64,000 nt of DNA from an uncultured Gemmatimonadaceae bacterium (GCA_963716745.1 OY970320.1:3104001-3168000); one strand, 5' to 3'; counted from the stretch's first letter, positions 6,091 through 36,637 are shown. Notes: generated by a model from the sequence alone, not told the origin. Made by a program: numbers and translations.

Positions 6091-6209
6091 GGCGGGCGGC
6101 GGGCTCCGCGCCGGCGGCGGACAGCTCGAACCGCTTCGAGCCTCGCGCACACTGCGCGCGAGTCTCTCGCTTCTCGCTGACGCCGCCTCTGCGGAGCCCG
6201 CCGCCCGCC
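6091..6209 (-). repeat. Hairpin repeat family A, copy 1 (variant middle stem)
   Basis: Core CCGCTTCGAGCCTCGCG...CGCGAGTCTCTCGCTT flanked by complementary arms GGCGGGCGGCGGGCTCCGC / GCGGAGCCCGCCGCCCGCC. Confidence 0.85.
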
Positions 6210-6384
6210 TTGGGATCGCCGCGCTCTGAATGCGCGCGGTCGATGCGCTCGCGCTGCCGGCGGCGTGCGCCGTGACCGATCCATGCGCGCTCGCTGCCCC
6301 CGTCGCCGCGACGGGCTCGCCGCTCACTTCCCGCACGGGCATGATGCGGTCGGGCCGCGGGTGGTCGAACGCGATCGACGTCAA

Positions 6385-6500
6385 GGAGCGGGGTGCCGGG
6401 GGCGTAGCCGCGATAGCGAAAAGCGAGAGACTCGCGGCAGTATCGCGAGGCTCGAAGCGGTTTGAGCGAAAGCGGCCAAGCCCCCGGCGGCCCCGCGACC
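6385..6500 (+). repeat. Hairpin repeat family A, copy 2
   Basis: GCGAAAAGCGAGAGACTCGCG-loop-CGCGAGGCTCGAAGCGGTTTGAGCGAAAGCGGCC core. Confidence 0.9.
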
Positions 6501-6603
6501 GGCGGCACAACGATCTCGGCCTTGAACGCCGAATGACCCAACCCGCATTCTTATAGCGCGGGCGCGCTATCGCGCGTCCGCGAACTCATGGCGGAGCGAC
6601 CGC

Positions 6604-8557
6604 ATGGCTCAGTACGTGCGACTCACGAAACCAATGGTGCGCGTGAACGGGGAACTACGCGAAGCCACGTGGGACGAGGCGCTCGACCGCGCCGCGAACG
6701 GCTTCCGCACTATCCGCGACCGCGACGGCGGCGATGCGCTCGGGATCTTCTCGTGCTCCAAGGCGAGCAACGAGATGAATTTCGTCGCGCAGAAACTCGC
6801 CCGCATCGCGTTCGGCACGCACAACATCGACAGCTGCAACCGAACGTGACACGCACCTAGCGTCGTCGGTCTGGCGACGGTGTTCGGGGCAGGCGGAGGC
6901 ACGAGCTCCTACCGCGAGGCGGAGGAGACGGACGTGATCTTCCTCTGGGGCGCGAATCCCCGGGAGAATCACCCCATCTTCTTCCACCACGTGCTGAAGG
7001 GCGTGCACAATGGCGCGCGCCTGTACGCCATGGATCCGCGCCGCACCTCTACCGCCGCGTGGGCGCACCGCTGGCTCGGCCTGAACGTGGGCAGCGATGT
7101 CGCGCTCGCCAACGCCATGGGTCGCGTGATCATCCACGAGGGACTCGCGAACACCAAGTTCATCGAGCACGCCACTTCCGGCTTCGAGGCGTATCGCAAG
7201 CGCGTCGAGTCGTACACGCTGGAGCGCGCCGAGAAGCTCACGGGCGTTCCGGCCGTCGACATCCGCGACGCCGCGCTCGCCTACGCGCGCGCCGACCGCG
7301 CGATGATCTGCTGGACGCTCGGCATCACGGAGCACCACAATGCCGTCGACAACGTGCGCTCGCTCATCAACCTCGCGCTGCTCACCGGTCATGTCGGCCG
7401 CTACGGCTCTGGGCTCAATCCGCTGCGCGGGCAGAACAACGTGCAGGGCGGGGGCGACATGGGCGCGATCCCAAACCGCCTGCCGGGCTTCCAGGACATC
7501 CTCGATCCCGCGGTGCGCGAGCGGATCGACAAGATGTGGAACATCAAGATGAAGCCCACGATCGGCATGCACATGACGCAGATGTTCGAGGCGATGCACA
7601 AGAAGAAGCTCAAAGGCCTTTATGTGATCGGCGAGAATCCCGCGCAGAGCGAGGCCGATCAGCATCTCGCGCATGAATGTCTCGAGGGACTCGAGTTGCT
7701 GGTCGCCCAGGACATCTTCCTCACGCGCACCGCGCAGATGGCGCACGTGGTGTTCCCCGCGGCGTCCAGCTGGTGCGAGTCGGAAGGCACGGTCACGAAC
7801 TCCGAGCGCCGCGTGCAGCGCGTGCGCAAAGCGCTCGAGCCGCCCGGCGATGCGCGCGACGACATGTGGATCATCGCGCAGATCGCCAAACGGCTCGGCC
7901 ACGATTGGGGCAGCCGACGGGCGAGGGCGTGTGGAACGAAGTGCGGGCGGTGGCGCCCGAGATGTTCGGCGGCATGTCCTACGCGCGCCTGGAGGCGGAG
8001 CACGGACTGCAGTGGCCGTGCGCGAGCGAATCGGATCCCGGCGCGCAGTTCCTGCATGCGCGGCTGTGGGCCGAGCCGATGACCACGGCGCGCGCTCCCT
8101 TCGCCGCGCTGGACGACGAGCCGCCGGTGGAGATGCCCGACGACGAGTATCCGTTCCAGCTCACAACGGGGCGCCGCCTCGAGTCGTATAACACCGGCGT
8201 GCAGACGGGCGGCTACGATTCACCGCTCCATCGCGGAGAATCGCTCGATCTCTCGCCCGAGGATGCGAAACGGCTTCGTCTCGGAGACGGCGATGCCGTG
8301 CGCATCACCTCGCGGCGCGGCAGCGTCGTGGCGCCGGCGCGCATCTCGCCGGCGATGCGCCCCGGTCTCGTCTTCATGACACTGCATTTCCAGGACGACG
8401 TCCGCGTGAACCTGCTCACGATCGATGCGACGGATCCGCAGTCCGGCACCGCCGAGTTCAAGGCATGCGCGGTGAAGCTGGAACCGGTGAGGAAGAAGAG
8501 CGCTGCGAAGGCATCCGCCAAGGCGAAGAAGGAAGAAGAGCCACCACCCGCCGCTAG
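6604..8557 (+). CDS. fdhF: Selenocysteine-containing formate dehydrogenase catalytic (Mo/W-bisPGD) subunit; Sec at TGA 6847-6849; apparent frameshifts near 7915 and 8540
   Basis: HNIDSCNRT-TGA-HAPSVVGLATVFG aligns with the FdhF CARVUHGPSV active site; PLRGQNNVQG, GTVTNSERRVQ and C-terminal LTTGR...AEFKAC motifs; stop inferred at TAG 8555-8557. Confidence 0.9.
6850..6882 (+). promoter_or_regulatory. Bacterial SECIS element
   Basis: Stem CGTCGTC (6861-6867) / GGCGACG (6873-6879) with a GGTCT loop, starting 11 nt after the TGA as in E. coli fdhF. Confidence 0.85.
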
Positions 8558-8568
8558 AGGAGCACGCA

Positions 8569-10461
8569 TTGGATCTGCATTTCGGCACGGCGGAGGCGAC
8601 GCTCGAGGAGCGCGAGCGCGGTGGATGCGTTGCTCGGACCGCCGCAGAGCGGATGGGACGGAGGTGAACGCGTCGCCGCACGCGACACCCGCGTGGCCGA
8701 CGGCGGACTCTCCTATCACGGCGAGCGTACGCAATTGCTCCCGGCGCTGCGCGCGGTGCAATCGCGCTGCGGTTGGATCAGCGAGGGCGCGCTCACGTAC
8801 ATCTGCCATGCGTCTGAACGTGCCGCCCGCCGAAGCGTACGGCGTGGCGACGTTCTACGCGCTGCTGTCCACCACGCCGCGGCCCAAACGCATGCTGCAC
8901 GTGTGCGACGACATCGCGTGCAAGACGCGCGGCGCCGACGCGCTCATCGCCGCGCTCGAGAAGAAGGCGGGGCCCGCGGCGCATCACTCGCCGAACGGCG
9001 ATCACGCGCATGTGAATGCGAGCGGCGCCTCGTGGCTGCGCAGTCCGTGCCTCGGACTTTGCGATCGCGCGCCGGCGGCGTTCTTGCAGGTGGCCGGCGC
9101 GAAGCCGCAGGAGACGCTCGCGGGCGATGTGACGGAGAAAGAATTGATCGCGATGCTCGGCGGCACGCACAAGGCCAAGCCCCTCGCGATGCCCGCGATC
9201 CCGCAGCGAGGACAGAAGGATCTCCGCCTCCTCGCTCGAGTCGGCGTCGTGGACCCGTCGAGCCTGGACGACTACCGCGCGAGCGGCGGCTACGGCGCGC
9301 TGCGCCGCGCCTTCGAGATGGGCGCGGAGGCCGTCATCCGCGAGGTCACCGAGTCCAAGCTCGCGGGCCGCGGCGGCGCCGCGTTCCCCACCGGCCGCAA
9401 ATGGGATGCGGTGTCGAAGCAAACGGCGCGCCCGCACTATCTCATCTGCAACGCCGACGAATCCGAGCCCGGCACCTTCAAGGACCGCGTGCTCATGGAG
9501 GGCGATCCGTTCGCGATCATCGAATCGATGACGATCGCCGCTTTCGCCACCGGCTGCGAGCGCGCGTTCATCTACATCCGCGGCGAATATCCGCTCGCCA
9601 CCGCGCGACTGCAGCACGCGATCGACACCGCGCGCGCACACGGCATGCTTGGGCCCAACGTCATGGGCCACGGCTTCGCGCTCGAGATCGAGATCCGCCG
9701 CGGCGGCGGCGCGTACATCTGCGGCGAAGAGACCGCCATCTTCAATTCCATCGAAGGCTATCGCGGCGAGCCGCGCAACAAGCCGCCCTTCCCGGCGGAG
9801 AGCGGCGTGTTCCGCAAGCCGACGTGTGTGAACAACGTCGAGACGCTCGCGAACATCCCCTTCATCGTGCTGAACGGCGGCGCCGCCTTCGCGGCCACGG
9901 GAACCAAGGAGTCCACCGGCACGAGGCTTTTCTGCCTCTCCGGCGCCGTCGAGCGGCCCGGCGTGTATGAAGTGCCCTTCGGCGCCACGCTGCGCGATCT
10001 CCTCGCGCTCGCCGGCGGCCCGCGCGGCAAGCGTCCGCTCAAAGCCATTCTGCTCGGCGGCGCGGCCGGAGTGTTCGTGCGTCCCGACGAGCTCGACATC
10101 CCGCTCACCTTCGAAGGCGCGCGCGAAGCCAAGGTGACGCTCGGCTCCGGCGTGATCATGGCGTTCGACGACAGCACCGATATCACGCAGGTCATCCGGC
10201 GCATCGCGTCGTTCTTCCGCGACGAATCGTGCGGCCAGTGCGTGCCGTGCCGCGTGGGCACCGTGCGCCAGGAGGAGGCGTTGCACCGCCTCGCCTCCAA
10301 GCGCACGCGCGGTGGCGTCGCGGCCGAGCTCGCGCTGCTCGACGAGATCGGCACGGCCATGAAGGATGCGTCGATCTGCGGACTCGGCCAAACGGCGTAC
10401 AGCGCGGTGGAGTCGGCGATGAAGCGACTCGAATCTCTACAGCGCGGAGGGCGCCGTATGA
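8569..10461 (+). CDS. Fused NuoE/NuoF-like (FdsG-FdsB) diaphorase subunit of NAD-dependent formate dehydrogenase; apparent frameshifts near 8608, 8805 and 10431
   Basis: GVATFY, VCDDIAC and CLGLCDRAP (2Fe-2S) followed by GRGGAAFPTG, NADESEPG, GAYICGEET and ESCGQCVPCR; TTG start after AGAGGAG inferred. Confidence 0.85.
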
Positions 10462-11405
10462 CCGCGCTCGTCCAGCTGCGCACGCCCAAGCGCACCGTCG
10501 CGCTCACGATCGACGGCGAGCAGGTGTCCGTGCCGGAGGGTTCGACGATCCTCGACGCGGCGGCCGCGATGGGCAAGTCGCTGCCCACGCTCTGCTATCT
10601 CGAAACACTGCACCCGGTGAACGCGTGCCGAGTGTGCGTGGTGGAGCTCGAGGGCTCACGCGTGCTCGTGCCCAGTTGCTCGCGCAAGGTGGAAGCGGGA
10701 ATGGTTGTGCGTACCAACAGCGAACGCGTGAAGCACAGCCGCAAGATGGTGCTCGAGTTCCTCGCGTCGAGCGTGGACCTCTCCACCACGCCGCACGTCT
10801 CCGAGTGGCTCGATGAGTACGACTGCCGGCCCGCGCGCTACGGTCCGCCGGCGCCCGCGGCCCAGGACGGCGCACGCGACGAGGTGCACACCGGCCATCA
10901 CGATGCGCCCGATCCCGCGTTCGCGGCCACCGTGCGTCAGCCGCTCAAGAACGACAACGAGCTCTACGTGCGCGATTACGGCAAGTGCATCCTGTGCTAC
11001 AAGTGCGTGGAAGCGTGCGGCACCGATTTCCAGAACACCTTCGCCATCGCCGTCGCGGGCCGTGGATTCGACGCGCGCATCTCCACCGAGTTCGCCACCC
11101 CGCTGCCGGGCTCGGCGTGCGTGTACTGCGGGAATTGCATCGCCGTGTGCCCCACGGGTGCGCTGATGTTCACGAGCGAACACACCAAGCGCGCCGACGG
11201 CACATGGGACGAATCGAAGCAGGCACAGGTGGACACGATCTGTCCGTACTGCGGTGTGGGCTGCACGCTCACGCTGCACGTGCAGGACAACGAGATCGTG
11301 AAAGTGACATCGCCCTTCGACGTGTCGATCACCGAGGGGAATCTCTGCATCAAGGGACGGTTCGGCTGGCGCTACGTGCAGTCGCGCGGCGACGCGCGCG
11401 CATGA
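10458..11405 (+). CDS. Iron-sulfur subunit equivalent to the N-terminal module of FdsA/NuoG (2Fe-2S, 2x4Fe-4S and the molybdopterin Fe4S4 domain)
   Basis: PTLC...ACRVCVV...PSC, CILCYKCVEAC, CVYCGNCIAVCPTGAL and terminal TICPYCGVGC...GNLCIKGRFG. Confidence 0.9.
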   Translation: MTALVQLRTPKRTVALTIDGEQVSVPEGSTILDAAAAMGKSLPTLCYLETLHPVNACRVCVVELEGSRVLVPSCSRKVEAGMVVRTNSERVKHSRKMVLEFLASSVDLSTTPHVSEWLDEYDCRPARYGPPAPAAQDGARDEVHTGHHDAPDPAFAATVRQPLKNDNELYVRDYGKCILCYKCVEACGTDFQNTFAIAVAGRGFDARISTEFATPLPGSACVYCGNCIAVCPTGALMFTSEHTKRADGTWDESKQAQVDTICPYCGVGCTLTLHVQDNEIVKVTSPFDVSITEGNLCIKGRFGWRYVQSRGDARA

Positions 11406-12254
11406 CGCTGCCCCCCGAGCTCACGCCGGGGCACCCGCTCTTCGGACTCGGCTACGCCAAGCCGCAACTCGAGCGCGAATTCGTGCGGCTCGATGAGGAC
11501 GGCGCGACGAAGGAGCATTCGAGCGTCGCGGAGGAAGTCCCCGTCGCGCTCGTGTACAACCAGCGTCCGCACGTCGTGATGATGGCGACGCCGGCCGACC
11601 TCGAAGATTTCGCGACGGGCTTCACCCTCTCCGAGGAGATCGTCGCGCGCGCGAGCGACATCGCGAGCGTGCGCGTGCAGCCATACAGCCAGGGCGTGGA
11701 GATCCAGATCACCATTCCTGCGAGCGCGGCGGCGGCGCTCGAGCAGCGCGGCCGCCAGCTCGTGGGACAAACGGGCTGTGGACTCTGCGGCGTGCAGACC
11801 ATCGCCGATGCACTCCGCCCCACGCGCGCCGTGACCGCCAAGTGGACGCTCCACGCGAGCGCAGTCTGGCGCGCCGAGGGCGCGCTGGCCGCGCGACAGG
11901 AACTGAACCAGAGCACCGGCGCCGTGCACGCCGCCGCGTGGGCCACGCGCGAGCGGCGAACTCACTGTCGTGCGCGAAGACGTCGGCCGCCACAACGCGC
12001 TCGACAAGGTGACCGGCGCCCTCGCGCGCGCCGGCACCGACGCGAGCGCGGGCTTCCTGGTGCTCACGAGTCGCGCGAGCTACGAATTGGTTCAGAAAGC
12101 CAGCGTCGCCGGCGTTCCCATTCTCGCGACGGTCTCGCGACCCACGGGTCTCGCGATCAGACTGGCCGAGGCTGCAGGGATCACGCTCATATCGTTGTTG
12201 CGCGGTTCCAGCGCGAACGTATACTCGCACCCCGAACGCGTGAGTAGTGCGTAG
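11402..12254 (+). CDS. fdhD: Formate dehydrogenase accessory sulfurtransferase; apparent frameshift near 11950
   Basis: MATPADLEDFATGF, GCGLCG, TGAVHAAA, REDVGRHNALDK and SRASYELVQK motifs. Confidence 0.92.
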
Positions 12255-12285
12255 GTCGCGCGCGCGTTGGTCATCGCGCGAAGAC

Positions 12286-12406
12286 GGCGGGCGGCGGTTC
12301 CCGGCTAGGCCGCTTTCGCTCGAACCGCTTCGAGCCTCGCGGCTGGACCGCGCCGCGAGTCTCTCGCTTCTCGCTGCCGCGGCTGCGCCGGGATCCGCCC
12401 CCCGCC
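12286..12406 (-). repeat. Hairpin repeat family A, copy 3
   Basis: Reverse complement of the core (CGGCTAGGCCGCTTTCGCTC...CTCTCGCTTCTCGCTGCCGCGGCTGCGCCG). Confidence 0.9.
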
Positions 12407-12503
12407 TCTGGATCGCGAACCGCGCGCAGCCCGCGAATGCGAGACCGGATCGCCGCGCTCTCCCGCTCGTTATGCGGCCATTTGGCGATTCAAGATCATC
12501 GCA

Positions 12504-12623
12504 GGGAGCGCCGCTGGCGTCGGCGCAGCCGCGGCAGCGAAAAGCGAGAGACTCGCGCGTAGTATGCGCGAGGCTCGAAGCGGTTTGAGCGAAAGCGGCC
12601 TAGCCGACGCCGGCGGCGCGACC
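12504..12623 (+). repeat. Hairpin repeat family A, copy 4
   Basis: GGGAGCG...core...CGCGACC. Confidence 0.9.
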
Positions 12624-12643
12624 GCGGCGCGATGTTCTAGGCC

Positions 12644-13744
12644 CTATGACAGCATCGCCGAGCCGAGATAAACAGCGAAGATCACGATGAGCACCGTGCC
12701 TTGGAGGATCGTCGTCTTCCCCGTGCGCAGCGCGAGTGCGGTCACGAAGAGCGAGAGGACGAGCAGCACCGTGCTCTTGCCGTCGATGCCGAGCGTGAGC
12801 GTGAGTCCGGTCGCGAGCGACACGATCGCGACTGCGGGGATCGTCAGCCCGATACTCGCGAGCGCGCTGCCGAGCGCGAGGTTGAGACTCGTCTGCAAGC
12901 GGTTCTGGCGCGCGGCGCGCACCGCGGCGATCCCCTCCGGCATGAGCACGACGCCAGCAATGATCACGCCGACCAGCGCCGGCGGCGCGCCCGCGCGCGC
13001 GACCGCGTCCTCGAGCGTGGGCGCGATCTTCTTCGCGAGCAGCACCACGGCCGCGAGACACACGAGCAGCAATGTCGCGCTGAGCGCGGTCGCGCGGTTC
13101 GACGGCGGCGGCGCGTCCACCGCGACGCCGCTCGGCGATGCCTCGAGGAAATAGCCGCGGTGGCGCACCGTCTGCACCAGCACGAAGGTCCCGTACAGCA
13201 CCAGCGAGACCAGCGCGATGAACGCGAGCTGTCCCGGCCCATACACCGGACCGGCCACGTGCGTGTCGTAATTGGGAAGGATGAGCGTGAGCACCGCGAT
13301 CGTCGCGAGCGTCGTGAGCGCGCCCGTGACGCCATCGATGCCGAACGTCTGCTCGCGATGCCGCATGGCGCCCACGAGCAGGCACATCCCGACCATGCCG
13401 GTGAGGATGATCATGAGCGTCGCGAACACCGTGTCGCGTGCGAGCGCGGCGGTGGCCGCGCCGCCCGCGATCATGAGCGACACGATGAGCGCGACCTCGA
13501 TGAGCGTCACCGCGATCGCGAGCACGAGCGTCCCGAAGGGCTCGCCCACGCGATGCGCTACCGCCTCGGCATGGTGCACCGCGGCGAGCACCGCTCCCAC
13601 GAGCGCGAGCGCGAGCACCACTACGAACCACGCGCCCGTGATCGCCAGCGCCGCCACTATCATCCCCCACGCCACCACCGGCGCCGCGATCGTCCACTTC
13701 GGCAAATGCGCGACACCGGGCGTCGTCTCTTGGTCTTCAGCCAT
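12644..13744 (-). CDS. chaA: Ca2+/H+ (Na+/H+) antiporter, CaCA family
   Basis: HHAEAVAHRVGEPFGTLVLAIAVTLIEV and MPEG...NLALGSALASIGLTIPAV alpha repeats. Confidence 0.88.
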   Translation of the reverse strand: MAEDQETTPGVAHLPKWTIAAPVVAWGMIVAALAITGAWFVVVLALALVGAVLAAVHHAEAVAHRVGEPFGTLVLAIAVTLIEVALIVSLMIAGGAATAALARDTVFATLMIILTGMVGMCLLVGAMRHREQTFGIDGVTGALTTLATIAVLTLILPNYDTHVAGPVYGPGQLAFIALVSLVLYGTFVLVQTVRHRGYFLEASPSGVAVDAPPPSNRATALSATLLLVCLAAVVLLAKKIAPTLEDAVARAGAPPALVGVIIAGVVLMPEGIAAVRAARQNRLQTSLNLALGSALASIGLTIPAVAIVSLATGLTLTLGIDGKSTVLLVLSLFVTALALRTGKTTILQGTVLIVIFAVYLGSAMLS

Positions 13745-13875
13745 GCGAGATAACCTAGCGCGTCAGGTGGATCATTGCAGTCAGCGCGCGCGAAGCGACC
13801 AGACCGCCGATCGCGCCTCATCGCATGGGTTGCGGCAATAGCACCCCGCCGAAACCATTGACGCGATCACGATCA

Positions 13876-13993
13876 GGGAGCGAGCGAGCGGTCGGCGCAG
13901 CCGCGATAGCGAAAAGCGAGAGACTCGCGGCGGTATCGCGAGGCTCGAAGCGGTTTGAGCGAAAGCGGCCTAGCCGACCGCTCGCTCGCGACC
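13876..13993 (+). repeat. Hairpin repeat family A, copy 5
   Basis: Core plus arms AGCGAGCGGTCGGC / GCCGACCGCTCGCT. Confidence 0.9.
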
Positions 13994-14196
13994 GGCCGCG
14001 CGATGACCCCGAACCTTGCAAGCAATTCGGGGTTATACTAGATACAAGAAGAATCGGACCGGTGCGGTCGACCGGTCCCCCGGACGTGCGAGGCTTGTCT
14101 CGCAAGTCGAGGGCGCAGGCGAGGCTCCCAGCGATGGGGCCGGCCGGCGCCCTTTTTCATTCGTGCACCTTCACCTCTCAACGAGGCGATCGATAC

Positions 14197-15975
14197 ATGC
14201 GAGTCTTCACCAAGGAACTCACCGCGATCGCGCTGGCGGCCGCCGTCCAGATGACGCTGCCGCCGTCGCTCTACGCCGATCCGCCGGCGCGCGTGGCGCG
14301 CATCAGCTTCGTTACGGGCGACGCATCGCTCCGCCATGGTACGTCGGGCGACTGGATGGCGTTCATGATGAACTATCCAGTGACCACCGGCGACGAACTC
14401 TGGGTCGACGCCGGCGGACGCTCGGAACTCCACTTCGGCTCGTCCGCGCTCCGGCTCGGCGAGCGTACGGCACTGTCATTCGTGCTGCTCGAGGACGATC
14501 GCGTCGTGCTGCGCCTCACGCAGGGCGAGATCTCGCTGCGCGTGCGCTCGCTCGATGAGAGCGATCACATGGAGATCGAGACGCCGACATCCACCGTGTC
14601 CGTCATGCGCCCCGGGGACTATCGGCTCACCGTGGACTCGTTGGGACTGAGTACGCTGGTCGCCGTGCGCGTCGGCGATGCGCAGGTCGCATCGTCCGGG
14701 GGAACCTATGAAGTGCTCGCGGGTCACGTGGGCCTCGCGTCGAGCGATCCGAATACGCCGTTCGATGTCCGGCCGCTGCCGGTGGAGCCGGCCGATGAAT
14801 TCGACGCCTGGGCGCAGTCGCGGGCGCGCGCCGAGGATGCGTCACCATCGGGCCGCTATGTGTCGATGGAGATGACGGGGTACGAAGCGCTCGACGCATA
14901 CGGACATTGGGAGGAGACGCCCGATTACGGCGAGGTGTGGGTCCCGTCGAACGTCGGCGACGATTGGGCGCCGTATCGCGTGGGCCGCTGGGTGTGGGTG
15001 GATCCGTGGGGATGGACGTGGATCGATGCGGAGCCGTGGGGCTTTGCGCCGTTCCACTATGGACGATGGGCGCGCTACGGCGGCGTATGGGTCTGGGCGC
15101 CGGGCGTGCGCGTCGCGCGGCCGGTGTACGCGCCCGCGCTGGTGGCCTTTGTTGGGGGAGGGACGTGGAGCGTGTCGGCCCGGTTCGGCCCGGCGGGAGG
15201 CGTCGCGTGGTTCCCGCTGGCGCCCGGCGAACCGTGGGTGCCGTCATATCACGCGAGCACGACGTACGTGAGGAACGTGAACATCACGAACGTGCACGTC
15301 ACGAACATCAACGTGACGAACGTGAACGTGCAGAACATCCACTATAAGAACGTGCAGGTCGCCGGCGCCGTGACGGCGGTGCCGCGCGAGACCTTCGTCT
15401 CCGCGAAGCCGGTGCGCGCTGCGGCGGTGCCGCTGCAGCCGCAGGACGTACGGCAGATCCAGGTGGTGGCGCACGCGCCGCCGGTGACCCCGAGCCCGGC
15501 GAGCCGGATCACTCCGGTCTCCGCGCATCCCGCCGCGCCGCCGCCACGCGTTGCGACGCACATCACGGAGTTGCACGCGGAGCCTCCACCGCACCCGGCG
15601 CCGGCAGCCGCACCGGCCGTTCCGCCAACACGAATGAACGGCCCGGGCACCGCCGTACGCGTGCCCGTGGATCCGCGTCCGCGCGCCGACATCATCGCGC
15701 AGCAGCGCGCGGTGCAATCACGCCAGGTACTCGAACACGCGCAGCTGCAGGACAAACATCTCCAGGAAAAAGCGAGCGCGCCGAAGGGCCAAGTGCCGCC
15801 CCAGATGCAGTCGCGCCAGCAGAAGGAGACCCAGACGATGGAAGCGCGCCACGCCACTGAGAACGCGCCCAAGCACCCGGTGTCGCCCGCGAAGGTAGCG
15901 CCGCCACCGAAACCCGTGCCGGCGCACGCGCCGCCGCCCAAACCGAAGGAGGAGCCGAAGCCGCCGACGCGTTAG
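14197..15975 (+). CDS. Secreted FecR-like / DUF6600-type protein with a Pro-rich tail
   Basis: Signal peptide, DPPARVARIS, then YGEVWVP...WAPYRVGRW...PWGFAPFHYGRW...WFPLAPGE and NVTNV repeats. Confidence 0.75.
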   Translation: MRVFTKELTAIALAAAVQMTLPPSLYADPPARVARISFVTGDASLRHGTSGDWMAFMMNYPVTTGDELWVDAGGRSELHFGSSALRLGERTALSFVLLEDDRVVLRLTQGEISLRVRSLDESDHMEIETPTSTVSVMRPGDYRLTVDSLGLSTLVAVRVGDAQVASSGGTYEVLAGHVGLASSDPNTPFDVRPLPVEPADEFDAWAQSRARAEDASPSGRYVSMEMTGYEALDAYGHWEETPDYGEVWVPSNVGDDWAPYRVGRWVWVDPWGWTWIDAEPWGFAPFHYGRWARYGGVWVWAPGVRVARPVYAPALVAFVGGGTWSVSARFGPAGGVAWFPLAPGEPWVPSYHASTTYVRNVNITNVHVTNINVTNVNVQNIHYKNVQVAGAVTAVPRETFVSAKPVRAAAVPLQPQDVRQIQVVAHAPPVTPSPASRITPVSAHPAAPPPRVATHITELHAEPPPHPAPAAAPAVPPTRMNGPGTAVRVPVDPRPRADIIAQQRAVQSRQVLEHAQLQDKHLQEKASAPKGQVPPQMQSRQQKETQTMEARHATENAPKHPVSPAKVAPPPKPVPAHAPPPKPKEEPKPPTR

Positions 15976-16083: not shown

Positions 16084-16202
16084 GGGAGCGCCGCCGCCTC
16101 CGGCGCAGCCGCGATAGCGAAAGCGAGAGCCTCGCGCGCAGTGTGCGCGAGGCTCGAAGCGGTTTGAGCGAAAGCGGCCTAGCCGGAGACGGCGTCGCGA
16201 CC
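16084..16202 (+). repeat. Hairpin repeat family A, copy 6
   Basis: GGGAGCG...core...CGCGACC. Confidence 0.9.
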
Positions 16203-16220
16203 GAGCGCGCGACCGAAGTT

Positions 16221-16991
16221 CTACTCGCGTGGCTCCGATCGATAGATGGGCCCGAGCTTCTCAACGGCCGACGTGCGCAGGAGCCGGAAGAACAGCGCGC
16301 GCAATTCGAAATGCAGGTTCTCGATCATGTCCTCGCGCTCCTTCCAGAAATCGTCGTCGATGCCGAGCTGGCGGCGGCACTCGATCGAGAGCGTGAGCCC
16401 GTTCACATCGGGATCCGGATCGATGAACGCGCCCATCGGGTTCGGCTGGATCTCCACCACGCGCGAATACGTCTCGTCGTTCAGCTCGACGCGCAGGTGC
16501 ATGCCGCGCTCGGGCACCGGCTCGCCGTTCATGCGCACATCCACGCGCAGTCCTTCCAGCTGCCGCTCCGGCATCTCGCGCAGCACGTTCACGAACTTCA
16601 GCGAGATGCGCTCCACCGCGCCCACCATCTTGCTCGCCCGCAGCGCGTCGGTGAGCGCCTCGATGCGGTCGCGCACTTCGTCCCACCCGGGATACGGCGC
16701 CACGAGCCGCAGCCACACCGCCTGATCGCCCACCATGACCGCCGCGAGGGGACTGAACTGACGGATCCGCGGCTGGTATCGCATCTCTTCCTGCGTCTTC
16801 CGGAATTGCGCGGGCGCTGCCGACACCGGGATCGACTCCGAGCGCGGATACGCCTCGGTGAGCACGGTGCGGAAATACGCCGGCAAACCCTCGGCTTTGT
16901 CGCCGCTCAGCGGCTTGAAGCGCAGCTCGAACGTGGCCTCCTCGATCGGCGGCCGCGCGAGTTCCTGCGGGAGAAGATATTTGTTGGACAC
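16221..16991 (-). CDS. TIGR04255-like hypothetical protein
   Basis: N-terminal [17 protein letters not shown]-like segment and [10 protein letters not shown] pattern. Confidence 0.6.
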
Positions 16992-19518: not shown

Positions 19519-19519
19519 C

Positions 19520-21390: not shown

Positions 21391-21508
21391 GGGAGCGGCG
21401 AGGCCTCCGGCGCAGCCGCGATAGCGAAAAGCGAGAGACTCGCGGCAGTATCGCGAGGCTCGAAGCGGTTTGAGCGAAAGCGGCCTAGCCGGAGGCGTCG
21501 CCGCGACC
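21391..21508 (+). repeat. Hairpin repeat family A, copy 7
   Basis: Core plus arms GCGGCGAGGCCTCCGGC / GCCGGAGGCGTCGCCGC. Confidence 0.9.
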
Positions 21509-21522
21509 GGCCGCGCGATAGG

Positions 21523-23054: not shown

Positions 23055-23135
23055 GAATGAGGCTCCAGGTGACCGAGTGACTTGCAGAGTGCGTGGTAAT
23101 ATCCGCCCGGCGCACGTGCGGTCAACCGCGCCGCC

Positions 23136-23253
23136 GGTCGCGGCGACGGGTCCGGCTAGGCCGCTTTCGCTCAAACCGCTTCGAGCCTCGCGATGGTGCC
23201 GCGAGTCTCTCGCTTTTCGCTGCCGCGGCTGCGCCGGACCCGTCGCCGCTCCC
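23136..23253 (-). repeat. Hairpin repeat family A, copy 8
   Basis: GGTCGCGGCGACGGGTCCGGC...core(rc)...GCCGGACCCGTCGCCGCTCCC. Confidence 0.9.
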
Positions 23254-23373
23254 TGTCGTCGCACCAGCGTCGCGCGAAGTCGTTCAGTTTGCGTAGCGAG
23301 TCGCCGCCGAGGTGCCCGCTGTTATTTCGATGAGCGTGAAGATCAATAGTTCGCGGCCCCACGATCGATGTCA

Positions 23374-23492
23374 GGGAGCGGTGCCGTCCCGGCAGAGGCG
23401 CCCCCGCGCGTAGCGAGAGACTCGCGCGCAGCATGCGCGAGGCTCGAAGCGTGTAAGCGCGAGGGCGCCGGCGCCGGGATGGCGCCGCGACC
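23374..23492 (+). repeat. Hairpin repeat family A, copy 9 (subtype A2)
   Basis: Same ends and AGCGAGAGACTCGCG/CGCGAGGCTCGAAGCG apex, different middle stem. Confidence 0.88.
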
Positions 23493-23506
23493 GGCGGCGA
23501 GATGAC

Positions 23507-25873
23507 CTACTCACCACGAAGCACGGTCATTGGATCAACGCGGCTCGACCGCCATGCGGGCACGTATGCAGCCACGAGCGCCGTGCCCATGGCGATCACC
23601 GCGCCGGCGGCGTACACGGTTGGATCCAGATGTGACACACCGTACAGGAGCGACTCGAGATAGCGCGTCGCGAAGAGCGCGCCCGCGACGCCCGCCGCGA
23701 TCCCGCCGGCGGCGGTGAGCGCGGCGCCGCGCATCACGTCGAGTCGCACGGTGTGCGCGCTGGCGCCAAGCGCCATGCGGATCCCGATCTCCTGCGTGCG
23801 CGTGGTGACGATGTAGGAGATCACGCCGTAGATGCCGATCGCGGCGAGCAGCAGCGCGATCGCGCCGAATCCGGTGAGCGCGAGCATTGCGAAGCGGCGG
23901 TCGGCGGCGCTGCGGGCGATGCGCTCCTCCAGCCGGCCGTAGAGCGCCGGCGTTCCGGGCAGGATCGTGCGCATGAGCGCGCGAATGGGCGCGACGATCG
24001 AGCCTTCCGCGTTCGAGATGCGGACCATCGCCACGACCGGCCCTTCGGCCTGCTTCGCATGCTGCGCCAGCGGCACATAGATCTCGTTCTGCGCGCCGCG
24101 CGGCGCCGTCCAGATCGACGCTTCGCTCACAACGCCCACCACGGTGAGCCACTGGTCGAACATGATGTTGCTCGAGATCGACTTGCCCACCGGATCCTCG
24201 CCGGGCCATAGCTTGGCCGCGATGCCGGGTGTGATGATCGCCACCGGGATGCTCCCCTCTCGATCCGCGTCGGTGAACGCCCGCCCGCGCAGCACCGGCT
24301 GCCGCAGCACGGAGAAGTATTCCGGACTGATGACGCGGAATCCCGCCATCGCCGGCCAATCGTGATCCGGCGGATCGCCGGGGCGCCGAACAGGTGACGA
24401 CATGGTCTCCCACGCGAGCGGAGCCCGCGTCGTATACGCGGCGCCGGTCACGCCGGGCAGCGCGCGGATGCCGGCGAGCAAGCGATCGTACTGCGCTTGC
24501 TCCCCGCTCTTCAGCGTCGCCGTGACGGTGAGAATGCCGTTCGGATCGAAGCCGCTGTCGGCCGTCATGATGTTGTGGAACGTCTCGATGAGCATCGCGG
24601 ATGCCGTGACGAGCACGATCGCGAGCGCGACTTCGAATCCGATGAGCACGCGCCACACCGGCGCACGCACCGCGAGCGAACTTGTGCGACTCCCGCGCAG
24701 CACGAGACCGGCATCCCGGTTCGCTAGGCGGAGCGCCGGATACACGCCCACGGCGAGCGTCGCCACTGCCGCCACCACGATCGCGAACGCGAGAACGCGC
24801 GTGTCCATCTCCAGCGATGCCAGGCGCGGCATGATCGCCGCTCCCTCGGCCGCGATCGCGCGAATGGCGAACGCCGACACCAGCGAGGCCAGCGCGGCGC
24901 CTGACGTCGCGATCACGAGACTCTCGGTGAGCAGCTGCCGGATCAACCGTGACCGCGACGCGCCCAGTGCCGCTCGCACTACCACCTCGCGCTCGCGCAC
25001 CCGGCCGCGGGCAAGCTGCGCGCTCACGAGATTCGTGCACGCGATGAGCAGCACGAGCGCCGCCGCACCGAACACGATCGGCGGCATCGTCCGGTAGTTC
25101 GCCACCAGATAGTCGCGCAGCGGCACGACGTCGGCGTCCACCGCCTGCGTCCCGTTGCCGAACTCGGCGAGCAGCGACTTCGAGAGCGCTGTCATGTTCG
25201 CGCGCGCGGCCCCGAGCGAAACGCCCGGGGTGAGCCGCGCGATCACGGTGTAGTTCGACGCGTTGCGCTGGTTGTCCGGGTAATGCTCGTGCGGATAGAA
25301 CACGTCCGCCGGCTGCATGAACTGGAATCCCGGCGGCATCACGCCCACCACCGGATATCGCTCTCCCGCGCCGAGCGTTCCGAGCGGGAGTCGCCCGCCC
25401 ATCTGCGTGCGCCAGAACTCGTACGACACCATGAGCGCCTGCGGCCCGCCGGGCGATTCTTCGTCGTCGGTGAATTCGCGGCCGATGGACGGCGAAACGC
25501 CGAGCGTCGCGAGGAAATGGCGCGAGATGCCGAGCATGGTGGCGTGCACCGGCTCACCATCGTTCGCGTCGGGCCACACGAATCGCGCACCGAGTCTCGT
25601 AGCGGAGGCCACGCTCTCGAAGGAGCGCGCGTTCTCTCTCCAGCTCACGAAGTTCGGATAGGACGGCGCAATGAGCTCCTGTTTCGCCGTGCGCTCGCGA
25701 ATGAACACAAGCCGGCCGGCGTCGCGATAGGGCAGGGGGCGGAGCAGCGTCGCATCGAGCACGGCGAACGCGACGGTAGCGGCCGCGATCCCGATTGTGA
25801 GCGTGCCCACGGCGAGCGCCGTGAAGCCCGGACTCTTGCGCAGCGAACGGAGTGCCCAGCGCAGGTCTTGCAT
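23507..25873 (-). CDS. Duplicated ABC transporter permease (ADOP/MacB-like, about 790 aa)
   Basis: QDLRWALRSLRKSPGF, LLIACTNL, RAALGASR, EIGIRMALGA and RVDPM motifs. Confidence 0.9.
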   Translation of the reverse strand: MQDLRWALRSLRKSPGFTALAVGTLTIGIAAATVAFAVLDATLLRPLPYRDAGRLVFIRERTAKQELIAPSYPNFVSWRENARSFESVASATRLGARFVWPDANDGEPVHATMLGISRHFLATLGVSPSIGREFTDDEESPGGPQALMVSYEFWRTQMGGRLPLGTLGAGERYPVVGVMPPGFQFMQPADVFYPHEHYPDNQRNASNYTVIARLTPGVSLGAARANMTALSKSLLAEFGNGTQAVDADVVPLRDYLVANYRTMPPIVFGAAALVLLIACTNLVSAQLARGRVREREVVVRAALGASRSRLIRQLLTESLVIATSGAALASLVSAFAIRAIAAEGAAIMPRLASLEMDTRVLAFAIVVAAVATLAVGVYPALRLANRDAGLVLRGSRTSSLAVRAPVWRVLIGFEVALAIVLVTASAMLIETFHNIMTADSGFDPNGILTVTATLKSGEQAQYDRLLAGIRALPGVTGAAYTTRAPLAWETMSSPVRRPGDPPDHDWPAMAGFRVISPEYFSVLRQPVLRGRAFTDADREGSIPVAIITPGIAAKLWPGEDPVGKSISSNIMFDQWLTVVGVVSEASIWTAPRGAQNEIYVPLAQHAKQAEGPVVAMVRISNAEGSIVAPIRALMRTILPGTPALYGRLEERIARSAADRRFAMLALTGFGAIALLLAAIGIYGVISYIVTTRTQEIGIRMALGASAHTVRLDVMRGAALTAAGGIAAGVAGALFATRYLESLLYGVSHLDPTVYAAGAVIAMGTALVAAYVPAWRSSRVDPMTVLRGE

Positions 25874-25945
25874 TCGGATCTCCTGGGGAATCGTGCTCCT
25901 AGCTAGACATCGGCGCGACACACATGGTTGCCGCCGGCCCGCGGT

Positions 25946-26686
25946 TCAATCTTCCAGCGACGGCAGCGTCTTCAGCACCTCACGCGCTTCCAGCCGCGCA
26001 CCCACGACGTCATCCTTCCGCACCTTGCCGTCGCGGAACACGATCACGCGCTTCGCGAACTGCGCGATATCCTGCTCATGCGTCACCATCACGATGGTGA
26101 GCCCGGCGTCGTTCAGCCGCTGGAAGATCTCCATGATCTCCACCGACGTGTGACTGTCGAGGTTACCCGTGGGCTCGTCGGCCAGCAAGATGGACGGTTG
26201 ATTCACCAGCGCGCGCGCGATCGCAACGCGCTGTTGTTGGCCGCCCGAGAGCTGCGACGGAAAATGGTCCGAGCGGTCGGCGAGGCCCACCAACGCCAGC
26301 GCATCCGTGGCGCGTCGCTGCGCTTCCTCCTTCGGGATGGTGGAGTAGAGCGTCGGCAGCGCCGTGTTCTCGAGCGCGGTGGTGCGCGCGATCAGGTTGA
26401 ATCCCTGGAACACGAACCCCAGCTTCTGGTTCCGGATCACCGCGAGCTGGCGCTTCTCCAGGCTCGCGACGTCGGTGCCATCCAGATGGTACGTGCCGGA
26501 CGTGGGCGTATCGAGGCAGCCGAGGATGTTCATGAACGTACTCTTCCCGCTGCCGCTCGCGCCCATGATCGCGACGAAGCCGCCCGCCGCGACCTCCACG
26601 CTCACGCCGCGCAGCGCGTGCACGCGTGTTTCGCCGAGCTGATAGTACTTATGCGCGTCCTGGACGCGGATCACCGACGCCGTCAT
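25946..26686 (-). CDS. MacB/LolD-type ABC transporter ATP-binding protein
   Basis: [28 protein letters not shown] and MVTHE motifs. Confidence 0.93.
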
Positions 26687-30558: not shown

Positions 30559-33469
30559 ATGCGCTCATCTCGCGTGTTCCCTTCCAGCATTTCGTGTCGC
30601 GTTGCCTCCGTTGCCGCACTCGTTGTCTTGTTGCCGTCCCTCACGCTGTCATTGCATGCACAGGTTCCGGTCGGCGTGATCGCTGGCCGCGTCGCCGATT
30701 CGTCCGGTAAGGGCATCGACGGCGCGCTCATCCACGTTGTCGGCACGCGGCTCGGCAGCCAGAGCGACTCCACCGGCGCGTTCCGCGTCATCATGATCCC
30801 GCCCGGCACGTATCGGGTGACGGTCGTGAGCCTCCTCGGGTTCGCGCCCGACACGTTCTCGGCGACCGTCGCCGCGAATGAGACCCTGCGCCACGATGTA
30901 CAGCTCAGGTTCACGGGCGCGACCACTGCCAAGTTGGCCACGGTGTTCGTGACCGCGGAGCGTTTGGGCCAGACCATGGCCGAAGCGCTGAACGAACAGA
31001 AGAACGCGACGAACATCATCAACGTGATGTCCGGCGATGAGATCCGCGCGCTCCCCAACTACAATGCCGCCGAGGCGGCTGGGCGGATCTCCGGCGTGTC
31101 CCTCGAGCGCGACGAAGGGGAGGGGAAGTACGTGCAGGTGCGCGGCACCGAACCGCGCCTCACGAATGTGACCGTGAATGGTGCGCAGGTGCCGGGCACG
31201 TCCACCGACCGCGTCGTCAAGCTGGATGATGTCCCGTCGGACATCCTGGGCGCGATCAAGGTGTCCAAGACGCTCACTGCCGACATGAATGCCGACGCGA
31301 TCGGCGGCTCGGTGGACCTCGTCACCAAGACGCCGGAGGATGCGCCGCAGGGCTACGTCTCGGGGCAATTCGGCGACATCGATCTGCTGAACCGCACGAG
31401 CGGCCAGGCCGGCTTCACGTACGGCGGTCGCTATGGAGATGCGAAACAGACGGGCTTCTTGATCGGCGCGTCCTGGGACCGGTCGTACCGCGCGATCAAC
31501 GACGTGGAACCCGCGTGGGCGTACAATGGCGATGGGACCTCGCATCCGGTGGAGTGGAGTCAGCGCGACTATCTGTACGATCGCACGCGCATCGGCGCCG
31601 GCGGCGATCTCGACTATCGCTTCGACGAGCACAACACGATCTACCTCAAGGGTATGTACAGTCACTTCGAGAATTTCGGGACGCGCTACGTGTACGATGT
31701 GGCGTCGAGCGATGACTCGGCAGCTTCGGGAACGACTGGATTCGGCACTGGCGTGGGCGCAACGCGTGAGGTGGAGTTCCGCACGCCCACGGAGCAGCTG
31801 TGGGGCGGAAGCGCCGGCGGTCTGCACGAGTTCTCGAAGTGGACGCTGAACTATCAGGTGAACTACACCGGCACGTCGCAGATCGACAATAACTACCGCT
31901 CCAGCACCTACGTCGCGAATGGCAGCGGCAACATGACGCTCGCCTACAACTACGCCAACCGCACGTACCCGACGTTCAACTTTCCCGATCCCTCGCAGGC
32001 GGCCGCGGCCGTCGCGGCGGGCGACTATGCCCTCAATGGCTACGACACCGACTACGATAAGACCACCGCGTACGACCTCGGCGGGAACATCGACATGCTT
32101 CGCCAATACTCGCTCGGCGATCACACGAGCTTCTTCAAGTTCGGCGTTCGCCTTCGCGACGACAACAAGGTGTACAACCAGAACGAGCAGAGCTTTGGTT
32201 CCAACACGCCCTATGCGAATGTCGTCGTCCCTGAGTTCGTTCACCGACCCTCACTTCTATAGCCGCCTCAGCCCGAGCTACCCGCTCGGCCCGGTCCCCG
32301 ATTACGGTTCGTCCCAGACGTACGAGAATTCGAATCCTGGCGCATTCGACAACCAGACCGACACGCTGGGCAATCAGCTTGCGAGCTTCACCGGCAGCGA
32401 GAAGATCTACGCGGGCTACCTGATGAACACCACCGAGTTCGGCCCGCTCCTGGTGAACCTCGGTCTCCGCGTGGAGCAAACGAACGACACCTATACCGGG
32501 AGCGCGGTGACGCAGAACGCGGCCGGCGACACCACGTTCGTCACGCCCGTTGCGGGGAAGTCGTCGTACGCCGACTGGTTCCCGAGTCTCCAGTTGAAGT
32601 ACTCGACGGAGTCCAATTGGAATTACCAGTTCGCCATCACGCGAGGGATCGCGCGGCCGAATTATTCGGATCTTGCGCCAAGCCTGTCGGGCATCGCCGA
32701 TCCGACGCTGATCAATGACTACTCGAACGTTTCCGCCGGCAATCCGGACCTCAAGGCGCAAACGGCTTGGAACTACGATATTTTCGTCGGCCACTTCTTC
32801 AAGAATGTCGGCATCCTGTCGGCGGGCGTCTTCTACAAGGACATCTCGAACTTCATCTTCACGCGCAATTTCCGGTATGCGGGGCCGTATGCGCCGCTCG
32901 TGGGTTACGCCGGCACGCAGCCGCAGAACGGCAACTCCGGGCATCTCTCCGGGATCGAGCTGGAGTGGATCCAGCACTTCAGCTTCCTGCCTGGTTGGAC
33001 CTCGGGATTCGGGATCGACGCGAACTACACGCACACCAACAGCTCGGCGGTCGTGCCATGCAGCGACCCCGGCGTAGGCGGCTGCTCGGTGAGCGGCGCC
33101 GACACGACCCGCAAGGCCACGCTCCCGCGGCAGGCGCCGGATATCGGGAACATCGCGCTCATCTATGACCGCGGCGTCGTGTCGGCACGCGTCGCCTGGA
33201 CGTACAACGGCGCCAGCATCTACTCTTACGGCGACGGGTCGAACTCGGGCGAGACCGGCGACACGTACTTCTATCCGCACTCGCAGTTCGACGCGTCGAT
33301 CATGTGGAACGTGACGCGCACCACGCAGCTCCAGTTCCAGGTGCTCAACATCAACAACGCGGTCTTCGGATTCAACAATGGCGTACCGGGTGACAACTAC
33401 AACATCCAGCGTGAGTACTACGGCGCCACGTTCTTCCTGGGCGTGCGCTACGGCTTCGTGGGCTACTGA
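30559..33469 (+). CDS. TonB-dependent receptor with an N-terminal carboxypeptidase-regulatory-like domain; apparent frameshift near 32230
   Basis: Plug motif NAAEAAGRISGVS...GEGKYVQVRG, DAIGGSVDL, GNPDLK and C-terminal YYGATFFLGVRY. Confidence 0.88.
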
Positions 33470-35308: not shown

Positions 35309-35309
35309 C

Positions 35310-36245
35310 TCAGACACCGACGAGCGGGTAGCCCAAGTCGCGCCAAGCCTTGATCCCACCCTCGAGTGGCCGCACGCGCTCCACGCCGTGCCGCTTGAGC
35401 CGCAGCGCTGATCGCGCGCTCGACGCCTCGTTGGGACACGAGCAGTAGAGCACCACTTCGCCATGCGTCGGGATCTCGGAGAAGCGGATCTCCAGTTCCT
35501 CCGGCGTCATGCGCAGCGAACCCGGGATGCCGCCCGGTTCCGCCGCGAATTCCATCGTGTGCCGCAGATCGAGCACGACCGTCGGTTCGGCCGCGTCGAG
35601 CCGGCGCTTCAGTTCCTCCGGCGTGATGCGCGCCATGCGCAGCTCGCGATACAGCAGTTGCCGTCGCACGATCTTCCATCCGATGTAGATCGCGCAGAGC
35701 ACCACGAGCAGCTGCATGCCCGACACGCCGAAGCGCACGACGAGTTGCAGTATGTCCTCCACGCTCGCGCTGAATCCGTATCCGAGCCCGACGAACGCTG
35801 CGACCCATAGGACCGCGCCGAGGAGGTTGAGCGAATAGAACCGAACGCGCGACATGCCCGCGATCGCCGCGATCGGCTGCACCACGACGCCGGCGAATCC
35901 GGGCATGAAGTTCGCGATGAGCAGCGCCGCCGCGCCCCAGCTCGTGAAGAAATCGCGCGCCCCGCGCGCGCAACGATCGGGCTCGAGCGAAAGGCGGCAC
36001 ACGAGCGTCAGCACATCCCCGCGTCCATGGCGCGCCGCCTCGTACCACACTGCGTGCGCTGCCACCGACGCGAGCACCGCGACACTCATGACAAGGAACA
36101 GATCGAGTTGGCCGCCGCGCGCGATCGCGCCCGCGGCGATCAAGAATGGAATGGCCGGCAGCGGAACGCCGAGTTGGTCGGCCAGCACCAGCGCGAAGAG
36201 CACCGCGTAGCCGTGCTGCAGGAGGAACCCGTTCGCGTCACCCAT
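35310..36245 (-). CDS. DedA/VTT membrane protein fused to a rhodanese-like domain
   Basis: QLGVPLPA DedA motif; C-terminal VLYCSCPNEASSA...LEGG. Confidence 0.85.
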   Translation of the reverse strand: MGDANGFLLQHGYAVLFALVLADQLGVPLPAIPFLIAAGAIARGGQLDLFLVMSVAVLASVAAHAVWYEAARHGRGDVLTLVCRLSLEPDRCARGARDFFTSWGAAALLIANFMPGFAGVVVQPIAAIAGMSRVRFYSLNLLGAVLWVAAFVGLGYGFSASVEDILQLVVRFGVSGMQLLVVLCAIYIGWKIVRRQLLYRELRMARITPEELKRRLDAAEPTVVLDLRHTMEFAAEPGGIPGSLRMTPEELEIRFSEIPTHGEVVLYCSCPNEASSARSALRLKRHGVERVRPLEGGIKAWRDLGYPLVGV

Positions 36246-36276
36246 GATGCGCGTATCATAGACCATTCTCGCGCTT

Positions 36277-36399
36277 GGTCGCGACCCGGCCTCCGGCTAG
36301 GCCGCTTTCGCTCAAACCGCTTCGAGCCTCGCGGCTGTGGGGCGCCACGAGTCTCTCGCTTTTCGCTGCCGCGGCTGCGCCGGAGGCCGGCTCGCTCCC
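36277..36399 (-). repeat. Hairpin repeat family A, copy 10
   Basis: GGTCGCGACCCGGCCTCCGGC...core(rc)...GCCGGAGGCCGGCTCGCTCCC. Confidence 0.9.
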
Positions 36400-36518
36400 T
36401 GCCAAGGATCGAGCTACGCGCGGGAGCTCTCACTGCGCCTAACTCCGCACAGCGCGCATACGGCGCAGAGAACTGATCTGACGCGGCATTCAGCCCGCGC
36501 GAACCGTGATCGACGTCA

Positions 36519-36637
36519 GGGAGCGGTGCCATCCCGGCAGAGGCGCCCCCGCGCGTAGCGAGAGACTCGCGCGCCGTTTGCGCGAGGCTCGAAGCGTGTA
36601 AGCGCGAGGGCGCCGGCGCCGGGATGGCGCCGCGACC
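36519..36637 (+). repeat. Hairpin repeat family A, copy 11 (subtype A2)
   Basis: Nearly identical to copy 9 except in the apical loop. Confidence 0.88.

Follow-up and report, generated by a model that had tools for sequence, protein, structure and literature searches.

A large REP-like intergenic hairpin family in Gemmatimonadaceae and its possible use as a folded element at gene boundaries

Introduction

What kind of element recurs eleven times between the genes of a 31-kb stretch, with a fixed core and with stems that differ from copy to copy? The question is raised by a 64,000-nt segment (the window) from an uncultured Gemmatimonadaceae bacterium (GCA_963716745.1 OY970320.1:3104001-3168000), which lies at 3.10–3.17 Mb of a single 3.29-Mb contig with 67% G+C. 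An original prediction, made from the DNA alone, described a dispersed hairpin of about 120 bp at this locus and proposed that selection acts on its folded single strand. The best reading of the analysis presented here is that the copies form an undescribed family of intergenic hairpins that resemble repetitive extragenic palindromic (REP) sequences and, in the genomes searched, occur only in Gemmatimonadaceae. It is a real, constrained and unusually large REP-like family, and no REP-associated tyrosine transposase (RAYT) was found for it. That it works at gene boundaries as a folded part of transcripts is rated slightly more likely than not (about 0.55). The stop codon beside the element is nearly always TAG and often lies in GTAG; it appears to be provided by the terminus of the element or selected through it.

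Results

Structure and covariation of the element

All eleven copies were located by covariance model at the predicted positions, each with a length of 118–124 nt. The predicted layout, a hairpin running from GGGAGCG to CGCGACC, holds for this portion, but its outer limits had to be revised because the flanks pair as well (5′ GATCGAtGnCA with 3′ GGCgGCGCGATGA) and extend the unit to ~145 nt. An additional conserved block, AGCtCGCGCG, is located ~20 nt upstream of the element. The 25-nt core motif has 8 matches with ≤3 mismatches in the window and 0 in 100 shuffles. The basal arms are unique to each copy and there is no master sequence. The apical stem-loop is variable and is enclosed by an invariant, purine-rich, asymmetric core (AGCGAGAGAC / GGCTCGAAGCG). 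Unpaired purine-rich parts had been expected to be the conserved ones; AGCGAGAGAC...GGCTCGAAGCG around the apical stem proved to be the sole invariant part, whereas the GATA/GAAA and GCA/CTA loops vary among three subfamilies.

Outside the hairpin, the motif GCAGTT(C) recurs at a distance of ~20 nt on either side of some copies (positions 761715, 1675031 and 2914421 of the source genome, G000, and many metagenome copies: L170, L197, L215, L220). In some copies (G000 2175163, L077) the stem is longer, as the 5′ flank has GGTAGTTC and the 3′ flank a complementary GAACTACC.

Folding of ten copies gave very stable rods, whose minimum free energies range from −73 to −100 kcal/mol and whose z-scores range from −6.4 to −9.0; copy 1 has values of −100.3 kcal/mol and −9.0, and the extended fold of copy 7 has −89 kcal/mol. 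As had been predicted, the basal arms differ between copies and covary. Double changes occur at 14 of the 36 modelled pairs in the eleven window copies and at 26 of 36 among 97 distinct copies, in alignments that were fitted to the model and with orthologues among the copies counted. In the larger set, 96.8% of the pair cells are paired as compared with 81.1% in shuffles, and double-change cells number 433 as compared with 113; controls slid along the alignment pair at only 31–51%. The basal helix covaries throughout (16/16 pairs). The metagenome set, in which the core was fixed by the search pattern, is 93.9% paired against 67.8% in shuffles among the matches listed. Pairs within the invariant core show no variation at all in the 97 distinct copies and, because they never vary, the fold of the core is a prediction only. 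Readings of the core as a K-turn, sarcin-ricin motif, T-loop or DNA mini-hairpin were made by eye and were not adopted.

The two strands are not equivalent. In the stems, G–U pairs outnumber A–C pairs (97 vs 16), and the strand of the original prediction, reading from GGGAGCG to CGCGACC, folds more stably than its complement in 76 of 77 distinct copies. The difference is 9.7 kcal/mol under RNA parameters and 6.4 kcal/mol under DNA parameters. This asymmetry indicates that one strand is the folding strand, either as RNA or as single-stranded DNA (ssDNA). The 5′ and 3′ ends mentioned below are those of this strand.

Placement, polarity and stop codons

The CGCGACC end points to the nearest gene, and paired units therefore have their GGGAGCG ends facing each other. 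This arrangement was observed in 10/10 pairs of the source genome, in 19/19 two-match loci and, among the matches listed, in 8/8 metagenome two-match loci. The same polarity of inverted pairs occurs in two other genera and is independent of gene orientation. The spacers between pair members are 76–221 nt long and unrelated, and no conserved content other than the 5′ flank was found in them. The predicted intergenic location holds with respect to Pfam-supported genes, none of which traverses a copy, though mechanical open reading frames (ORFs) cross some copies.

The stop codon of a convergent gene lies 15–49 nt, typically 15–30 nt, from the 3′ end in 12 of 28 copies of the source genome, while a stop lies beside the 5′ end in only 3 of 28. 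TAG accounts for 11 of these 12 convergent stops, compared with 27% genome-wide (1881 roughly called genes). The tetranucleotide CTAC, which is GTAG on the other strand, is present 9–23 nt beyond the 3′ end in 24/80 copies (~2 expected by chance) and CTA in 40/80; control windows give 6 and 9 of 80. The enrichment of CTA/TAG is confined to the 3′ side. In two orthologue pairs, the gene abutted by an element stops with TAG and its partner, with no element beside it, has TGA at that codon; in one of them, the Na/Ca exchanger gene ends with TAG beside copy 4 and its G004 orthologue, which lacks the element, has TGA. One copy in G002 carries the tag at a place where the gene map of the window predicts no convergent gene. 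In the metagenome set, a convergent ORF end was found within 60 nt of 38 of 59 copies among the matches listed, with 25 TAG and 13 TGA stops by rough ORF calls.

Two other regularities were considered and not retained. A consistent sense orientation to the neighbouring genes was rejected, for 5′ sense, 3′ sense and antisense contexts all occur. A replication-strand bias was dropped: single copies are on the plus strand in 10 of 11 cases, yet they are distributed over both halves of a weak GC-skew curve.

Orthologous sites in related genomes

The region is syntenic with those of G002 and G004 at 91–95% identity, and most copies are orthologous. Orthologous copies are ~97% identical (806/828 and 1037/1073 bases); copy 8 matches its G004 and G002 orthologues at 117 and 116 of 118 aligned bases, respectively. 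Five neighbouring genes are 0.75–0.91 identical at third codon positions and 0.92–0.998 at first and second positions. The element thus changes several times slower than silent codon sites. Together with the covariation, the excess of G–U over A–C and the strand preference, this identity upholds the prediction that the folded single strand is under selection. Arms that are specific to one copy are also kept between species, with occasional compensatory changes such as A:T to C:G between copy 5 and its G002 orthologue and G:C to T:A in copy 2.

At orthologous loci the apical parts alternate between three forms, and copy 2 resembles a mosaic of two G002 copies, from which it follows that gene conversion also acts. 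Loss was observed as well. Copy 3 is partially deleted in G002 and absent in G004, and copy 6 is represented in G002 by its last ~12 nt, the result of an imprecise deletion. Other degenerate or partly deleted copies are present in the source genome at 2490384 and 1062806. An extra copy in G002, with its two genes, has no clean junction. A search of five genus genomes with an 11-kb stretch gave orthologous copies only, along with many other repeat families. Contigs from four soil DNA runs were short and of low depth, and none of them bridged or skipped an element.

Gene-content differences among the three genomes fall at element boundaries. The MacB-type gene (window 23507–25950) is absent in G002, and G004 lacks a 4.1-kb block (36246–40396) that comprises a two-component system, DoxX, two cytochromes c and copies 10 and 11. 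A further difference within the genus is a 634-bp stretch (window 19506–20140) that G002 does not have.

In G004 (L109:12342–15559), a GAF-PAS histidine-kinase gene replaces the pair formed by copies 3 and 4. On both sides it is bordered by a third repeat, GTCGTTAGTCGTACGC...GGCATGACAAC, in direct orientation, and this repeat likewise ends ~8 nt from a stop codon.

Distribution

The covariance model built from the 11 copies finds ~31 element places in the source genome, 11 of them within the 31-kb stretch. Local clustering is also seen in G131, with 7 copies in 31 kb. The element is present in 5/5 other genomes of the genus, with fewer copies in fragmented assemblies, and the database records that contain it are, by title, metagenome-assembled genomes of Gemmatimonadaceae. 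Diverged relatives in other Gemmatimonadaceae genera keep GCGUAGCRAGAGAC...GGCUCGNNGCGUGUAAGC and have different stems and longer loops. With a broader model, the element was detected in 4 of the 31 Gemmatimonadaceae genomes sampled, and 119 genomes representing eleven further families of the phylum gave no match. The searches located it in genera g1, g2, g14, g22, g30, g46 and g54 and in no other genus searched. The subfamily-B core is present in at least 124 stretches from soil metagenomes. A phage, plasmid or virus origin was discarded, as the core pattern was found in 0 viral contigs and there were no plasmid matches.

The element matches no Rfam 15 family: the only match above gathering score in the window is a tRNA, and a search of 12200–14100 at E up to 10 gave chance-level matches only (≤21 bits). 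A literature search for REPs in the phylum did not find the family in print.

Mobile-element genes near the copies

As originally predicted, no transposase or integrase was found among the 55 predicted proteins of the window; none was found among the examined neighbours of other copies either, and an NCBIfam search of neighbour proteins without a Pfam match gave nothing relevant. Phage_integrase matches in the source genome are near 0.30, 0.51, 1.44 and 2.78 Mb, none of them <300 kb from the window; those near 0.30 and 1.44 Mb are strong genes, and of the remaining two one is a broken gene and the other a weak match.

Copies in the window and other repeats nearby

The copies of the window and their neighbouring genes are listed in Table 1.

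Table 1 Coordinates, strand and surroundings of the eleven copies in the window.
Copy	Position	Strand	Subfamily	R1 (bits)	Arrangement	Neighbouring gene
1	6089..6210	-	C	99.3	inverted pair, left	CGCGACC-type end faces start of gltX (4578-6026, -; Pfam match)
2	6384..6501	+	A	121.4	right partner of copy 1	3′ end towards start of molybdopterin oxidoreductase gene
3	12284..12407	-		101	left of pair, convergent genes either side	3′ end ~38 nt past end of fdhD (12247)
4	12504..12624	+		133	right partner of copy 3	21 nt from 3′ end to TAG stop (12644-12646) of Na/Ca exchanger gene
5	13876..13994	+		134.7	single	upstream of and sense to DUF6600 gene (14062-15975)
6	16084..16203	+		122	single, downstream of DUF6600 gene	19 nt from 3′ end to TAG stop of convergent gene (16221-16991)
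7	21391..21509	+		134.5	single, downstream of CARDB-domain gene (ends 21317)	adjoins convergent peptidase S10 gene with broken frame, stop not callable
8	23135..23253	-		131	left of pair	3′ end towards start of peptidase S10 gene
9	23374..23493	+	B	86.7	right partner of copy 8	15 nt from 3′ end to TAG stop of MacB-type gene (23507-25873)
10	36276..36399	-		116.5	left of pair	3′ end adjoins start of rhodanese/VTT gene (35310-36266)
11	36519..36638	+	B	89.8	right partner of copy 10	15 nt from 3′ end to TAG stop of response-regulator gene (36652-37335)

Several large genes are split across frames, namely those for a molybdopterin oxidoreductase with Nuo-like domains (6605–11405), the peptidase S10 (20355–23264) and a TonB-dependent receptor (30628–33469). 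These may be assembly insertion/deletion errors or pseudogenes, and statements based on ORFs are affected by them.

A second, unrelated type of near-perfect palindrome of ~125 nt, made up of CCGGGAACCG-type repeats, flanks a DUF5694 gene (window 40395–40522 and 41768–41888). At a site where the window has such a palindrome, G002 has the hairpin studied here. More palindromic families of ~125 nt are located at 906–917 kb of G000 (L118:1688–1873, 2753–2893, 10023–10154 and 10794–10930); they recur dozens of times, on either strand, in G002, G004 and G005. Several families of hairpin repeats are present in these genomes. In addition, a terminator-like hairpin, AAAAAGCCCGCGC...GCGCGGGCTTT, is present in two stretches that are 75% alike (window 53789–53856 and 63393–63460), the second of which adjoins a tRNA gene (63458–63548).

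Discussion

Comparison with known systems

The original prediction set the element apart from REPs. Its genomic organisation nevertheless matches that of the GTAG- and CGTC-tagged REPs as presented by Di Nocera, De Gregorio and Rocco in their 2013 survey (PMC3733652). There, inverted dimers are the rule and head-to-tail dimers negligible; REPs are located at ORF 3′ ends, at a distance of up to ~20 bp and above all where genes converge; the terminus of a REP can provide a TAG stop; and stems contain G–T pairs, with subfamilies that have alternative complementary residues (PMC3733652). The same survey describes CGTC-class REPs as having no dedicated transposase, and it contains no mention of the phylum Gemmatimonadetes (PMC3733652). 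The present element shares the exclusive use of inverted dimers, the placement at ORF 3′ ends, a terminus that appears to supply TAG stops, the G–T pairs and the alternative complementary stems. As with the CGTC class, no dedicated transposase was found for it. Its tags, unlike those of REPs, are degenerate (24/80 and 21/80).

REPINs are hairpins of ~100 nt that are vertically inherited, long-lived and present in tens of copies per genome; their two short arm REPs are conserved and the middle is variable. The element is like REPINs in its apparently maintained hairpin pairing, its vertical inheritance and its tens of copies per genome, and differs from them in that the middle is conserved and the arms vary. 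The cognate Y1 (RAYT) gene flanked by repeats, by which REPIN–RAYT systems are recognised, was not found in the 6 element-bearing genomes screened. ERIC/IRU sequences are imperfect palindromes of ~127 bp in transcribed intergenic regions, form long RNA hairpins and occur in either orientation, and miniature inverted-repeat transposable elements (MITEs) are characterised by terminal inverted repeats together with a duplication of the target. The element is an imperfect intergenic palindrome of similar length to ERIC/IRU and likewise occurs in either orientation, but it has no sequence likeness to ERIC or MITEs, no duplication was seen, and its arms are not common to the copies. In attC sites, structure is kept over sequence, one folded strand is functional, and the site follows directly after the ORF stop; the boxes have RYYYAAC/GTTRRRY-type ends and the array runs in one orientation. 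Like attC, the element has its folded strand antisense to the ORF just past the stop. Its GGGAGCG/CGCGACC ends, alternating orientation, housekeeping neighbours and the lack of an integron integrase nearby are unlike attC, and the absence of attC-type ends bears out the prediction that the attC pattern does not apply.

A proposed folded transcript element at gene boundaries

We infer the following history and use. The family would have spread long ago by a REP-type single-strand mechanism, and the enzyme that spread it would since have been lost or be unrecognised. The copies would now be retained because the host uses the folded strand reading from GGGAGCG to CGCGACC. Most likely, the strand would be used as RNA, a hairpin within transcripts directed from the intergenic region to the gene, where it could serve as a 3′-end, stability or read-through barrier element, and the conserved loops are plausibly bound by a protein.

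A number of observations weigh against this interpretation. With respect to the spreading enzyme, Y1_Tnp (PF01797) gave 0 matches in G000 and was found in 0/5 of the other element-bearing genomes screened (G002, G004, G005, G131 and G145); the genus genomes are 63–90% complete and two of these five are 99% complete, and the control search with PF01797 was positive in 6 of 14 reference genomes. Y1_Tnp does occur in 35 of 150 other genomes of the family, including the unpublished G190, and the element was found beside the Y1_Tnp genes of relatives at 0 of the 19 loci searched. These results speak against the HUH/RAYT mobiliser that had been suggested. The empty sites that had been looked for at orthologous intergenic regions did not appear: no clean empty site or target duplication was found at the orthologous loci compared, the copy 6 site of G002 being the imprecise deletion described above, and past mobility can therefore only be inferred. 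Nor does the anatomy fit the published REP definition of a stem-loop of 20–40 bp with one stem of 8–9 or more bp and a small loop (PMC3733652). The element is three to four times longer (118–124 nt, ~145 nt with flanks) and has 36 modelled pairs, a conserved asymmetric core and several internal loops. REPs have GTAG or CGTC (TGTC) at one end; here the GTAG/TAG tag is present in no more than 24–40 of 80 copies, and just 21 of 80 have CGTC/TGTC at a distance of ≤8 nt from the 5′ end. CGTC/TGTC is not kept in the metagenome set.

The evidence from covariation and constraint has its own weak points. The copies counted include orthologues and so are not independent, and the invariance of the core may come partly from gene conversion, as the comparison of orthologous sequences suggests. 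With respect to the proposed role, the element does not look like a canonical intrinsic (Rho-independent) terminator, as there is no U-tract after either form: by eye, neither the 3′ flank consensus GGCgGCGCGATGA nor, on the other strand, the 5′ flank TGnCATCGATC contains a T-run. Relative to the gene whose stop codon is abutted, the better-folding strand is antisense, and the mRNA of that gene itself would therefore have the weaker hairpin.

Alternative explanations

Foremost among the alternatives, though unlikely, is that the element is a still-active ssDNA substrate, i.e. a non-autonomous mobile element or an attC-like or HUH-like recombination site. An unrecognised enzyme would bind the bulges, cut near the (G)TAG at the foot and move the elements or the adjoining genes. 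The folded strand, antisense to the ORF with its 3′ end at the stop, would by analogy have the polarity of the attC bottom strand. The tag at one end only, with no target duplication seen, fits such a substrate, as do the clustering of copies (11 in the 31-kb stretch here, 7 in a stretch of that length in G131) and the gene-content differences at element boundaries, which involve the MacB gene, the 4.1-kb block, the histidine-kinase gene and the extra G002 copy with two genes. The G–U excess does not decide for RNA, since G–T is also the best-tolerated mismatch in DNA and the strand asymmetry persists with DNA parameters. On the other hand, the Y1 search of the 6 element-bearing genomes found no transposase, the neighbours examined include neither a transposase nor an integrase, and the Phage_integrase matches are all remote from the window. 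Most copies occupy orthologous sites in species that are ~92% identical, the arms are unique with no master sequence, the orientation alternates unlike that of an attC array, and the single loss examined was an imprecise deletion.

It is somewhat more doubtful still that each copy is a small-RNA gene or cis-regulatory leader of its own, with a promoter in the conserved 5′ flank and loops that bind a regulatory protein. The blocks AGCtCGCGCG and GATCGA of the 5′ flank are indeed conserved at a fixed distance from the element, the divergent pairs are what outward transcription from the spacer would predict, and the strong purifying constraint and the core sequence kept across genera while the stems covary would suit such genes. 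Inspection by eye, however, revealed no sigma-70-like hexamers in the 5′ flank, which is paired to the 3′ flank as part of the hairpin, and a terminator U-tract is missing. The genes beside the ~31 copies are unrelated and share no functional theme. Relative to the nearest gene, the element may be sense or antisense, depending on the context, and no Rfam family matches it.

That the copies are a decaying, functionless relic of an extinct mobile element, whose appearance is maintained by arm-to-arm and copy-to-copy gene conversion alone, is improbable: degenerate or partly deleted copies (2490384, 1062806, and copies 3 and 6 in G002), conversion-like replacement of apical parts and the mobiliser not found in the Y1_Tnp search of 6 element-bearing genomes would agree with it, but arms that cannot be repaired from other copies are ~97% conserved against 75–91% at silent sites, the bias of G–U over A–C and the preserved mismatched loops are unlike the result of symmetric arm-to-arm conversion, and the core is conserved across genera.

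Implications

Beyond the preferred reading of a folded transcript element, a wider proposal can be offered tentatively, as one possibility that we would not rate as probable. The element could be a host-kept structured nucleic-acid module in which a putative protein reads the purine-rich core on one folded strand. It would mark or insulate gene boundaries and write its own (G)TAG stop onto its neighbours, and it would represent either a new class of structured RNA dispersed over the genome or a REP-type system that works with no RAYT.

Work on REP-type repeats has been confined almost entirely to Proteobacteria, and their role, as well as their origin and persistence without a RAYT, is unsettled. 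The present family is informative in this respect, for it combines a large hairpin, stems that covary in more than 100 copies, a core shared across genera, measurable constraint, a preferred strand and a link to TAG. It would give a handle for finding the protein that reads the hairpin and for testing whether the element acts as RNA or as DNA. The family also concerns annotators of Gemmatimonadota genomes, in which the repeats fragment short-read assemblies, give rise to spurious ORFs and fall where the gene content of close species differs.

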